Source: Escherichia phage vB_EcoP_C
Strand: one strand, 5' to 3'
Length of the DNA stretch: 44,970 nucleotides
Sequence record: NC_047807.1
Shown: piece by piece, positions 6,964-32,526 of the stretch
Layout: the number at the start of each line of letters is the position of its first letter
How positions within the stretch are numbered: position 1 is the stretch's first letter
Program-made: the position numbers and the translations under genes
The notes under the pieces: model-generated
Seen by the model: the letters and a program-made list of their open reading frames with translations, nothing else
The model's database searches: none
Told to the model about the DNA's origin: nothing

Positions 6964-7071
6964 TACATCTCCCTTTCCATTGAGCTAATAAGTCCGAGTA
7001 GTTCTTCCAGTCATCATAGTTGCCATCCTCGGCAGCTTGAGCAACCATGCGCTCGCACCATTCAATACATC

Positions 7072-7416
7072 TTACCATCGTGCACATCCCTCTCTTACAT
7101 CAATGTGGGTGAAATTAGGATAAGACCCAATGCCATATTTATTGGGGTAGCGTGCTGTTAGATAGGACCATACACGGTAAGGTGTAATACCTTGTACCTT
7201 AATGTCAGCAGCCTTACCAGTAAGATGCATGGAGTTCTTAGCACCTCCCACATTAGCATTGTGCTTAGCACAGCGGTGTCCAGAAGTAATAACTACAGGA
7301 GCACCAAAGTGCTCACGTACATCTGTGACTACCTGTAGTAACTCAGCATCTACTGTGGATGTACCGCACCCACAACGGCAAGCGAACTCACGGCGCTTGA
7401 AGTGTTTGTTAAGCAT
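7072..7416 (-). CDS. Endolysin, peptidase M15-like zinc peptidoglycan peptidase (about 114 aa)
   Basis: Motif SGHRCxxHNxxxGGxxxSxHxxGxAxDI typical of the M15/VanY-like fold; start moved to ATG at 7416 with GAGG SD. Confidence 0.7.
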   Translation of the reverse strand: MLNKHFKRREFACRCGCGTSTVDAELLQVVTDVREHFGAPVVITSGHRCAKHNANVGGAKNSMHLTGKAADIKVQGITPYRVWSYLTARYPNKYGIGSYPNFTHIDVREGCARW

Positions 7417-7436
7417 TATTGACCTCGTCTTTACAA

Positions 7437-7724
7437 TTAAGCCGCAGGTGTTACAGGGTCCGACTCCATAGTAGTTGCATCCCACTTGTCGGTGGGTTCA
7501 CTCCCACGTGCAATAGCGATGTACAAGGATTGGTTTGTTTTCTCTACAGCAACCATGGCGCCTTTCTGTTTACCAGAGAGGTGTTTAATGTTGATAGGAT
7601 GATCTTTCTTCTTAAGGTCTGCTTCAGCAACAATAGGCAAAGGGATTGCCGTTGCAGTGGTTTGTCCAGTTTTTACTCGAAAAGCCTGACCAGTAACAGT
7701 ACCTGCGGTTCCATATTTAGACAT
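7437..7724 (-). CDS. Hypothetical protein, paralogue B of tandem pair (95 aa)
   Basis: AGGAG SD; shares ...SGKQKGAMV...IAIA...W.A block with the adjacent gene. Confidence 0.6.
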   Translation of the reverse strand: MSKYGTAGTVTGQAFRVKTGQTTATAIPLPIVAEADLKKKDHPINIKHLSGKQKGAMVAVEKTNQSLYIAIARGSEPTDKWDATTMESDPVTPAA

Positions 7725-28385: not shown

Positions 28386-28856
28386 TTAAATATCCTCATC
28401 AATACATTCGTGACGATGCTTCTGGAATAGCTCTTTGTAGTAGTCTGCTTTCTTCAGATCTTCTTCCGTGTTGAATTTCTTCCCTGCACGCAGACGATAC
28501 TTCAAAGCATTACCCATGCAATATCCAGCAAATTGCTTCTCGGTCATACTACGAGCAATGATAGTGATTGCCTCTACCCCATCGAAGAACTCGTAGTGCT
28601 TAGGCTTAGTAACCATATTGTTGTCCAACGTGCTAGGATCTTCACCTTGCAATGAGTCAACAACCTTGAAGTAAGGTGCATACCATTCGCGCTTCTCAAC
28701 ACCTTCTAACATGATAGAGTTATAATTAGGTTCTGCACGGGATACTTTGAATACCCCATCTGGTTTCTTGTCTAGGCTTTCACACAGTTTATTCCAGATG
28801 GCATCTCGGTAAGCTGCACGGCGTACGACGTATTCGCCAATATAAATCTTTGACAT
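28386..28856 (-). CDS. Conserved hypothetical phage protein (about 156 aa)
   Basis: Start moved to ATG at 28856 (GGAGG SD); C-terminal block KPKHY...GNALKYRLRAGKK resembles a widespread small phage domain (recalled, unverified). Confidence 0.55.
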   Translation of the reverse strand: MSKIYIGEYVVRRAAYRDAIWNKLCESLDKKPDGVFKVSRAEPNYNSIMLEGVEKREWYAPYFKVVDSLQGEDPSTLDNNMVTKPKHYEFFDGVEAITIIARSMTEKQFAGYCMGNALKYRLRAGKKFNTEEDLKKADYYKELFQKHRHECIDEDI

Positions 28857-28907
28857 AATTAATTCCTCCATTCACTATACAATCAAGGGCAAGCTAATAC
28901 CTACCCT

Positions 28908-28930
28908 TTGTTCTATAGTGTCAACTAAAT
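28908..28930 (-). promoter_or_regulatory. SP6-type phage RNAP promoter (ATTTAGTTGACACTATAGAACAA)
   Basis: Promoter family member overlapping the phosphoesterase stop codon. Confidence 0.7.
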
Positions 28931-29932
28931 CTTACCAATCCAGCGATTGTCATTATTGGTCTGCATCGGGACAATGTGCGGCACACCCTCCAGAATAACC
29001 ACACAACCTAATGCTGGCTTGTATTTGGACTCACGACCATAGGCAAATGCACGAGATGACTCATCAATCAAACAGCCTCCCTGCACAGCCCAATACTGTT
29101 CATGGGTGTTACGTGCATACTCCACCGACATCTTCCCATGCAAGTGACCACACACTAAGTTCATGCGCTCATGTGCTGCATCTGCTAGGACAGCGCCAGC
29201 AGGTTGATGCTTGAACGCCACCTGCTCACCATTAGGTAGCTCAAGTACATGCGTATGCTGCCAGTCCCACTGGTCGCCACCTCCCTGCGGGAAGAAGACT
29301 TCACGGTATGTGCGCAGGTATTGCACAGGGATGCCATGAGCACTGGCCTTACGGAAATGTAAGGAGCCATGATTAGAGTGGCAGATGCGCATTACAGGGA
29401 ACATCTTATGTAATTTACGCATGAAGATACGAGCCTTCTCTAACTCCATACCAGCCGAATCCAGATTAGGATCTGACGTATGGAATGAAAGTGCGTGCTT
29501 GTCCGCCTCATCACCAAGATGAACTACAGTGTCTGGACGGTAACGTGCTGCCACCGCTGCCAGAAACTCTAATGTATCTGGATGCTCATAAGGTGCATGG
29601 GTGTCAGGTATTACCAGTACACTTCGATGAGGCGAGTCAGGCAATGGTACAATAGCCAAATCCTCGTAGCGGTCAGGAGTCCTGAGCTTACGTTCTTCTT
29701 TGATAGCACGGTTCGCAATAGCCAAGGTTTCATACGCCTCGCCATTCTTCTTCCGCTTTTCAAATTGTTTGGCCCAATACTTTGCAAGCTGCCTTGTAAC
29801 TGTAGTCCCGTGTGTGTTATCTGAGAGAATAGACGCCATTAGGCGATAGTTGATAGTGCCATCATCCCGCTTTGCACTTTCAACTGCTTCTTCTACCTCC
29901 TTATTAGTAAACAAGTTTCTAATCTTACCCAT
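28925..29932 (-). CDS. Calcineurin-like metallophosphoesterase, about 335 aa
   Basis: Motifs DTH, GDEAD, SNHG, GHLH in canonical order; ATG overlaps HNH endonuclease stop (TAATG). Confidence 0.7.
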   Translation of the reverse strand: MGKIRNLFTNKEVEEAVESAKRDDGTINYRLMASILSDNTHGTTVTRQLAKYWAKQFEKRKKNGEAYETLAIANRAIKEERKLRTPDRYEDLAIVPLPDSPHRSVLVIPDTHAPYEHPDTLEFLAAVAARYRPDTVVHLGDEADKHALSFHTSDPNLDSAGMELEKARIFMRKLHKMFPVMRICHSNHGSLHFRKASAHGIPVQYLRTYREVFFPQGGGDQWDWQHTHVLELPNGEQVAFKHQPAGAVLADAAHERMNLVCGHLHGKMSVEYARNTHEQYWAVQGGCLIDESSRAFAYGRESKYKPALGCVVILEGVPHIVPMQTNNDNRWIGKI

Positions 29933-30363
29933 TATTCTTTCCAAACCCTCCCGCTTACAATATCACTAATGGTAGCAGGTGAGACATTATATAGCTTAGC
30001 TAGTCGTAACCTCTCACCTTTCTTATTAGCAACATATGTTGCCCTGATAGCACGTACAACATCCCAAGTTAGTTTAGCACGATTATTATTTTCTCCTGCA
30101 AAGCTAGCACGTCTGCCTCGATCTATCATATCTTGTATGTTGTCCTGCTGTGTACCAGATATTAAGTGTGCAGGGTTTATACACCTTGCATTATCACAAG
30201 TGTGTCTAATCACTACATCCTTTATATCCTCTATAGAAAGGCCGTGGTGCTCTGCATAGACCACGCGATGAAGTAATTGTAACCTCTTACTAGGTTTATG
30301 CCACGACCTGTAGTAACCTAATTGATTTAAGCATTTATAATGCCCGTGGTCTATACAGTCCAT
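29932..30363 (-). CDS. HNH homing endonuclease, free-standing (about 143 aa)
   Basis: HNH block HHGLSIEDIKDVVIRHTCDNARCINPAHL plus C-terminal HTH-like tail; start moved to ATG at 30363 with AAGGAG SD. Confidence 0.8.
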   Translation of the reverse strand: MDCIDHGHYKCLNQLGYYRSWHKPSKRLQLLHRVVYAEHHGLSIEDIKDVVIRHTCDNARCINPAHLISGTQQDNIQDMIDRGRRASFAGENNNRAKLTWDVVRAIRATYVANKKGERLRLAKLYNVSPATISDIVSGRVWKE

Positions 30364-31964: not shown

Positions 31965-32081
31965 AATTCATTCTCCAATAACTATTACGCAAAAGACCCT
32001 GCCTACACTAAGGCAGACAGGGCATTAGATGAGGTGAGCGTGATAGTCAACTAGGACTAACAGAGGCTACACCTGCTATTA

Positions 32082-32453
32082 TCAAAACTCTTCCTCTTCG
32101 CTAACCGGAGCTTCCGGTGCAGACACTTCTACTGCCGGAGCTTCAGCTTCTTCAGCAGCTTTAACTTCTTTCACTGGTTTACCAGCAGCAATCCAATCCA
32201 GATATTCAGCTACGATGTTAGCCTTACCGATCTGGGCTTTGTCAGCCTGCTCAGGGAAGCAAGCACGAGCGAACTCCAGACCATCAGCGAAGTTACCCAT
32301 GCTGTCAATCTTAGCCTGAGCTTCTTCACGGGTATCGTAAGCCTTAGTACCAGCTACCAGTTGATCAGCTTCATCAACGATAATGAAAGACTCAACGGAT
32401 ACCAGAGCAGCACCTTTAACAACACGGTTTACGATAGTTTCAATCTTGAACAT
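32082..32453 (-). CDS. Hypothetical protein with acidic C-terminal tail ending ...SEEEEF (123 aa)
   Basis: AAAAGGAG SD; directly downstream of promoter 32504-32526. Confidence 0.6.
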   Translation of the reverse strand: MFKIETIVNRVVKGAALVSVESFIIVDEADQLVAGTKAYDTREEAQAKIDSMGNFADGLEFARACFPEQADKAQIGKANIVAEYLDWIAAGKPVKEVKAAEEAEAPAVEVSAPEAPVSEEEEF

Positions 32454-32503: not shown

Positions 32504-32526
32504 CTCTTCTATAGTGTCCAGTAAAT
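32504..32526 (-). promoter_or_regulatory. SP6-type phage RNAP promoter (ATTTACTGGACACTATAGAAGAG)
   Basis: Promoter family member; intergenic. Confidence 0.75.

Follow-up and report, generated by a model that had tools for sequence, protein, structure and literature searches.

What does the metallophosphoesterase (MPE) encoded among the DNA-metabolism genes of Escherichia phage vB_EcoP_C act upon? The window analyzed here is the whole 44,970-nucleotide stretch of record NC_047807.1, and the gene in question lies on its minus strand, where the initial annotation had offered three possible functions: DNA recombination or repair, dephosphorylation of host proteins, and degradation of nucleotide second messengers. 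We lean, modestly, towards the first of these, in the form of a DNA-directed phosphodiesterase belonging to the phage replication module. Four lines of evidence favor this role, namely kinship with the mycobacteriophage gp47/gp54 family, fold neighbors that include DP1, Mre11 and SbcD, recurrent fusion to helix-turn-helix (HTH) domains, and proximity to DNA polymerase genes; the phosphatase and cyclic-nucleotide roles found no such support. The presence of an MPE is by itself unsurprising and an annotation-level finding, as the gene is real, strongly conserved and already catalogued in SP6/K1E-like coliphages. Newly drawn here are the specific kinship with the gp47/gp54 family, an N-terminal domain of DNA-binding-like type, and the accidental nature of the linkage to a neighboring HNH endonuclease gene.

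The open reading frame (ORF) runs from an ATG at 29932 to a TAG at 28925-28927 (1008 bp, 335 amino acids) and, like all genes of the window, is read on the minus strand. A TTG at 29944 was rejected as the start, the N-termini of 34 homologues fitting the ATG. At 100% identity the gene matches D_10 of Escherichia phage vB_EcoP_D (KY295893) and its copy in phage vB_EcoP_R, both K1-specific members of Vectrevirus (Autographiviridae, Molineuxvirinae); the species of the window is Vectrevirus cee. Its counterpart in phage K1E is gene 22, encoding gp22. RefSeq copies from relatives that are 99.8-99.9% identical already bear the product name "metallo-phosphoesterase", and this public annotation, like the N-terminal domain, was missing from the initial annotation. 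The window protein matches PHROG 221 ("metallo-phosphoesterase") over its full length (E 8.6e-105). Comparison with K1E over codons 77-335 gives a ratio of non-synonymous to synonymous substitution rates of 0.044, and the gene is under strong purifying selection. Two BFVD entries labeled as phage K1E divide the protein, A0A2I4Q1Z7 (104 amino acids) being a stand-alone version 97% identical to the N-terminal domain and A0A2I4Q1Y4 (237 amino acids) a separate protein with the catalytic domain only; this would reflect either a split or frameshifted gene in some relatives or annotation as two ORFs.

Inspection of the catalytic domain bears out the call of a calcineurin-like MPE, with all five motifs present in order (Table 1). 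The motifs are invariant across a close alignment of 35 sequences (49-87% identity), and D141, N187, H188, H242, H263 and H265 are still invariant across a distant alignment of 81 sequences (32-55% identity). Motif III departs from GNH[D/E] by substitution of S for G and of G for D/E, retaining the metal-binding N and the catalytic H. Pfam Metallophos (PF00149) is passed marginally by the window protein (21.8 bits against a cut-off of 21.5) and matched at E<=0.01 by 44 of the 81 family members, and the predicted structure displays the beta-sandwich MPE fold. As judged from sequence, D110, H112, D141, N187, H242, H263 and H265 would form a complete binuclear-metal site with H188 as the catalytic histidine, and metal-dependent hydrolysis is predicted. 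The invariant loops beside motifs II and III (residues 144-159 and 189-195) are modeled with low confidence and may constitute a mobile substrate-binding lid.

Some homologues carry inteins within these motifs. In P0121, P0131 and P0153 the intein follows GDE of motif II (GDE/C...N/CD.H, with slashes at the junctions), and in P0157 it follows the histidine of motif I (IPDLH/C...GN/CPYHH) and contains a LAGLIDADG domain. Inteins usually occupy conserved motifs of important proteins, and their placement exactly in motifs I and II thus argues that the catalytic site is important. They also occur in mycobacteriophage MPE-type excision cofactors (PMC5050341). The inteins of the MPE homologues span ~250-300 amino acids; apart from the one with LAGLIDADG they lack Pfam matches, a hint that they are intein or homing modules of a divergent or unclassified kind.

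The closest folds to the MPE domain are the PolD DP1 exonuclease, YfcE/MJ0936 and Mre11/SbcD. Searching PDB sequences, either with the protein alone or with two profiles of the family, returned no meaningful match to any solved structure. The family itself is large, comprising 1815 clusters at E<=0.001 in a word-indexed search, 2967 representatives in an exhaustive search, and members in 645 sequenced phage genomes. These include SP6/K1E-like, KP34-like and Pectobacterium Phimunavirus-type phages as well as podophages of Aeromonas, Vibrio, Proteus and Pseudomonas. PHROG 221 also holds K1E gp22, the KP34 gp23 homologue, Bxb1 gp47, L5 gp54 and D29 gp54, with matches of E 4.5e-116 for Bxb1 gp47 and E 2.6e-113 for D29 gp54. 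We compared a profile of the 81-sequence family by hhalign with gp47, gp54 and four control proteins. Bxb1 gp47 scored 97.4% (E 1e-11, 204 columns) and D29 gp54 scored 97.8% (E 7e-13, 210 columns), both matches extending over the full length of the catalytic domain. The controls, all assigned to PHROGs other than 221, scored 50.5% for lambda NinI (E 1.6e-4, 73 columns covering motifs I-III only), 10.9% for E. coli SbcD (E 0.0028, 43 columns), 3.7% for T5 A1 (E 0.011, 78 columns) and 1.1% for the D29 gp66 cyclic-nucleotide phosphodiesterase (E 0.051, 77 columns).

Reports on these mycobacteriophage relatives link the family to DNA. The Bxb1 gp47 gene lies between the polymerase and primase genes, and its product is the Bxb1 excision cofactor, which controls integrase directionality through protein contacts (PMC1470463). 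gp47 is also reported to be needed for the replication of phage DNA (Savinov 2012, as cited in PMC11795197), and among known folds its predicted structure best matches Mre11 and PolD DP1 (5IHE; PMC11795197). The cluster-A homologue A10ZJ24 Gp48 is a phosphodiesterase that breaks down DNA both in vitro and in vivo, with linear, plasmid and genomic DNA as substrates, loses both its phosphodiesterase and its DNA-degrading activities upon the motif I mutation D10G, and is likewise required for phage DNA replication in M. tuberculosis (PMC12287305).

A further link to DNA comes from the N-terminal region. In the predicted structure of the window protein, this domain is all-helical and resembles the HTH domains of GcrA, Myb, small terminases and Tc3. 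Pfam returned only sub-threshold matches for the domain of the window clade, to HrpB_C, DUF2280 and DUF7841 (E 0.06-0.13), and we infer from the structural model that this domain may bind DNA. N-terminal extensions are present in 58 of 150 family representatives, about half of the representatives being stand-alone catalytic domains of ~235 amino acids. Pfam assigns HTH_23 to 14 of the 57 extensions scanned, HTH_28 and HTH_29 to 8 each, HTH_SB to 6, HTH_psq to 4 and a homing-endonuclease-associated repeat to 3, and the classical HTH domains of other clades sit at the position of the Myb/GcrA-like domain of the window protein. The catalytic domain has repeatedly acquired different DNA-binding heads, for which the simplest explanation is that the family enzyme works on DNA. 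Some extensions show, by eye, AP2-like and zinc-ribbon-like segments beside the homing-endonuclease-associated repeat, and such heads raise the question of whether some branches of the family are site-specific DNA-targeting nucleases.

Genomic context places the gene where the initial annotation had put it, in a DNA-metabolism module, with the endonuclease VII and HNH endonuclease genes on one side and those for a DUF3310 nucleotide kinase and an ATP-dependent DNA ligase on the other. The distance from the MPE gene to a DNA polymerase gene is 0.6-6 kb in the window, KP34, Bxb1, D29 and four metagenomic phage contigs. In KP34 the MPE gene follows the polymerase gene after two small ORFs, and in the four contigs it lies near Pol A or Pol B, helicase, NT5C, ThyX or RNR. 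The kinase and ligase neighbors of the window are not conserved elsewhere. Phage records at >=60% identity number 144 for the MPE and 150 for the cognate DNA polymerase, and these roughly equal counts mark the MPE as a near-core gene.

The reading that we favor builds on the motifs and fold, on membership of the family, on purifying selection and on the genomic context. Residues 104-335, the C-terminal domain, would hydrolyze DNA phosphodiester bonds as a nuclease of the Mre11/PolD-DP1 type, acting as an exo- or endonuclease, and the N-terminal three-helix domain would tether the enzyme to DNA or to a partner in the replisome. Phage RNA polymerase would transcribe the gene as a middle (DNA-metabolism) gene, alongside those for the 5'-3' exonuclease and endonuclease VII, and the targets of the enzyme could be replication or recombination intermediates, host DNA, or both. 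Catalysis, the DNA substrate, N-terminal DNA binding and the timing of expression are thus predicted features of the enzyme.

Several points weigh against this assignment. Data on the MPE homologues are thin and partly contradictory: gp47 displayed only weak exonuclease activity for which contamination was not ruled out (PMC11795197), is cited as lacking phosphoesterase activity (as relayed in PMC12287305), and is reported not to bind DNA (PMC1470463). The motif I histidine is replaced by Q in gp47 and gp54, so that their chemistry may not carry over to the window protein. Pairwise similarity between the window protein and Bxb1 gp47 is negligible (29% over 42 amino acids), and the kinship, specific as the profile and PHROG matches make it, is therefore remote. 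Fold scores separate nuclease-type from other MPEs only moderately. NT5C, ThyX, RNR and nucleotide kinase genes are also neighbors of family members, and gene context cannot separate a nuclease from a nucleotide-metabolizing enzyme. The phage DNA polymerase is of the T7 family A type and should have its own proofreading domain, so that a DP1-like editing role is not obviously needed. Finally, the literature on the enzyme of SP6, K1E, K1-5 and KP34 yielded annotation-level mentions and no functional paper. A transposon essentiality preprint mentions neither these phages nor any phosphoesterase.

A wider reading, which we hold as possible but doubtful, takes PHROG 221 as one class, not yet defined, of Mre11/DP1-like nucleases that associate with the replisome and carry interchangeable N-terminal DNA-binding modules. 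Members of this class would occur in mycobacteriophages, in SP6/K1E-like and KP34-like podophages and in many uncultured phages, and the modules (Myb-like in the window, and elsewhere HTH_23, psq or homing-endonuclease-type repeats) would bring the nuclease to DNA. Were this so, K1E-type gp22 would be an essential replication or recombination nuclease rather than an accessory enzyme, and, with its canonical active site and E. coli host, would offer a tractable model for the replication requirement of gp47.

The kinase gene beside the MPE gene invites a different view, in which the protein is a small-molecule nucleotide hydrolase of nucleotide salvage, acting on a dinucleoside polyphosphate, a nucleoside di- or triphosphate, or a 2',3'-cyclic or 3'-nucleotide, while the neighboring kinase channels host nucleotides into phage DNA. 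The YfcE subfamily is the NCBIfam model most often weakly matched by the family (7 of 81 members), and NT5C, ThyX, RNR or a dGTP diphosphohydrolase-like gene accompanies distant members much as the DUF3310 kinase does in the window. We consider salvage unlikely all the same. The kinase is absent beside the MPE gene in KP34, Bxb1 and D29, HTH-type domains fused in many clades are hard to square with a soluble nucleotide hydrolase, and the assayed homologue degrades DNA (PMC12287305).

An anti-defense phosphodiesterase that destroys the (cyclic) nucleotide immune signals of CBASS, Pycsar, Thoeris or type III CRISPR is a somewhat poorer prospect still. Its precedent is the unrelated mycobacteriophage MPE D29 gp66, which is reported to hydrolyze cyclic AMP and phosphoesters (as cited in PMC12287305). 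The window family has no specific similarity to gp66, as its PHROG and hhalign comparison indicate, and shows no specific sequence or fold similarity to gp66-type or class III cyclic-nucleotide phosphodiesterases; such phosphodiesterases rank below nuclease-type MPEs in the fold comparison. A near-core gene with a fixed place in the replication module and strong purifying selection is also unlike a sporadic accessory gene, HTH fusions are common in the family, and PADLOC returned no match for the window MPE.

The gene order MPE, nucleotide kinase, small ORF, ATP-dependent ligase could alternatively be taken for a repair cassette, with the MPE as an end-healing enzyme (3'-phosphatase or 2',3'-cyclic phosphodiesterase) modeled on the MPE domain of bacterial Pnkp or on ligase-associated PdeM. 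A weak match to the PdeM model TIGR04123 (E 1.4e-4; 6 of 81 family members) would agree with this, but it reaches 21.4 bits against a curated cut-off of 150 and covers only 33 residues around motif II, and membership of the ligase-associated PdeM group was rejected on that score. KP34, Bxb1, D29 and the metagenomic contigs lack this linkage to kinase and ligase, and in the window a phage promoter stands between the MPE gene and the other two. DUF3310/T7 gp1.7-type kinases are known as mononucleotide rather than polynucleotide kinases. End healing is accordingly a quite improbable function.

Very little speaks for a protein Ser/Thr/Tyr phosphatase resembling lambda NinI and acting on host or phage proteins: the superfamily is the same, and some records label homologues "phosphatase 2a-like" or "kinase phosphatase", but the PPP signatures are absent (GDEADKH in place of GDxVDRG, SNHG in place of GNHE) and the NinI alignment stops short at motifs I-III in a protein of another PHROG. 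Hardly more credible is a mainly non-catalytic protein-protein cofactor or DNA-binding regulator with the MPE fold as a scaffold, for which the protein contacts of Bxb1 gp47 and a possibly regulatory HTH-like domain could be invoked, given that metal ligands and catalytic histidine are invariant over large distances, that inteins target the catalytic motifs, and that no integrase lies among the annotated neighbors of a gene from a virulent phage family.

The role of excision cofactor can be addressed separately. SP6/K1E-family phages are virulent, and there is no integrase among the 20 annotated neighboring genes, the rest of the window not having been scanned for one; an excision-cofactor role therefore probably does not apply. 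A stand-alone family member on a metagenomic contig (L007; ERZ23498520 scaffold_104, 7001-7714) lies in a prophage-like region one gene from a tyrosine-integrase-like gene, a proximity that may be relevant to the Bxb1 gp47-type cofactor role.

Table 1 Features of the MPE locus, in positions of the window
Feature	Position	Strand	Remarks
MPE gene (K1E gene 22 homologue)	28925..29932	-	335 codons + TAG; from ORF and sequence
N-terminal three-helix HTH-like (Myb/GcrA-like) domain, residues 1-82	29687..29932	-	
Linker, residues 83-103	29624..29686	-	no modeled secondary structure; length varies in alignment
MPE catalytic domain, residues 104-335	28928..29623	-	
Motif I, D110-T-H112	29597..29605	-	invariant in 35-sequence alignment
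Motif II, G140-D141-E-A-D144-K-H146	29495..29515	-	intein after GDE in some homologues
Motif III, S186-N187-H188-G189 (variant of GNH[D/E])	29366..29377	-	N187 and H188 invariant in both alignments
Motif IV, H242	29207..29209	-	invariant in both alignments
Motif V, G262-H263-L-H265	29138..29149	-	invariant; coordinates checked against sequence
HNH homing-type endonuclease gene, mobile insertion	29932..30363	-	Pfam HNH_3 6.8e-08; PADLOC "homing endonuclease"
SP6-type phage promoter ATTTAGTTGACACTATAGAACAA	28930-28908	-	overlaps MPE stop codon; drives kinase and ligase genes
Nearest upstream phage promoter-like site	32507..32523	-	likely transcript source for the MPE gene

The gene was further said to be translationally coupled to the HNH endonuclease gene. 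The overlap is real in the window, where the HNH stop codon and the MPE start codon share one base (TAATG), but it is incidental because the HNH gene is absent in K1E, in which gene 21 (endonuclease VII) directly overlaps gene 22, and is truncated in phage vB_EcoP_B (99.9% identical), in which the HNH ORF ends 54 nucleotides before the MPE gene. Comparison with K1E reveals a mosaic patch around the HNH insertion that spans about 30769-28653. Nucleotide identity is 96-97% in the flanking genes and falls to 71% in the 5' half of the endonuclease VII gene and to 50% in MPE codons 1-76 (~50% at the amino acid level), whereas MPE codons 77-335 are 88.7% identical (96% at the amino acid level). From the sequence comparison, this is the pattern one would expect around a mobile homing-type endonuclease gene. 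The DUF3310 nucleotide-kinase gene (28386-28871, minus strand), T7 gp1.7-like by PHROG, is strongly diverged from K1E gene 23 in its 5' part and encodes 156-161 amino acids compared with 179 in K1E, with a second mosaic boundary directly after the promoter.

That the MPE gene ends at a phage promoter, as first proposed, was upheld. Its stop codon lies inside ATTTAGTTGACACTATAGAACAA, which we take to be an SP6-type promoter from its likeness to the SP6 consensus ATTTAGGTGACACTATAGAAGAG. Searches at <=3 mismatches returned 15 matches to the promoter pattern compared with 0.64 expected by chance, the exact match at the MPE end being given by construction because the pattern was derived from that site. 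The core GACACTATAGAA recurs at ~10-12 coding-strand sites. Promoter-like sites of the SP6 type that share GACACTATAGAA lie on the minus strand at 370, 6479, 8152, 11003, 23773 and 28911, with further sites at 32507, 33653, 34422, 38157, 39005 and 41305. Most of them read TAC(T/C)GGACACTATAGAA, and the site after the MPE gene reads TAGTTGACACTATAGAA, which is nearer the SP6 consensus. A terminator-like hairpin at 31996-32023 (minus strand; 11 pairs, 6 of them G-C, with a T-rich tail after it) separates the gene at 32082-32453 from the gene 19/exonuclease block and is located upstream of the MPE transcription unit.

The assignment matters beyond this locus. The MPE is near-core in two podophage groups, SP6/K1E-like and KP34-like, from which candidates for phage therapy are widely isolated, and the family at stake comprises ~3,000 representative clusters. 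What gp47, a member of the same family, does in DNA replication has lacked an explanation since 2012. Having a canonical active site, an added DNA-binding-like domain and an easy host, the coliphage protein would be well suited to studies of substrate and role, and our results favor placing DNA substrates ahead of cyclic nucleotides or phosphoproteins in such experiments.

How, then, does the protein compare with known systems? PolD DP1, the small subunit that serves archaea as an Mre11-like 3'-5' proofreading exonuclease and is grouped here with eukaryotic polymerase B-subunits, gives the best fold match, which concerns just the MPE domain and has 14% identity. DP1 possesses an OB-fold and a DP2 partner, whereas the window protein has neither and its N-terminal domain is helical; the DP1 NCBIfam model is weakly matched by only 1 of 81 family members, and the protein does not qualify as a DP1. 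Nor does it qualify as Mre11/SbcD, as no capping domain was identified in the protein and no Rad50/SbcC-like ATPase gene lies adjacent to its gene. YfcE/MJ0936 proteins are much smaller (165-184 amino acids) with GNCD-type motifs, and since their natural substrates are unknown the comparison gives no function. T5 A1, a predicted metallophosphatase and 556-amino-acid pre-early protein, was rejected as a homologue (hhalign 0.8% and 3.7%; different PHROG) and provides a functional analogy only. It is a phage MPE essential and sufficient for host DNA degradation and acts with a separate DNA-binding protein, A2 (10.64898/2026.04.02.716235), whereas the window protein has an HTH-like domain fused to its MPE domain. 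In contrast to these systems, gp47 and gp54 are members of the same family. They differ in bearing D-T-Q at motif I and GNHD at motif III where the window protein has the canonical D-x-H and SNHG, and as 255-amino-acid proteins they lack the extra ~100-residue N-terminal HTH-like domain. Genes of both branches reside in a replication module near those for DNA polymerase and endonuclease VII, intein insertions beside catalytic motifs are seen in either branch, and gp47 and the window MPE share PolD DP1 5IHE as their top fold relative.

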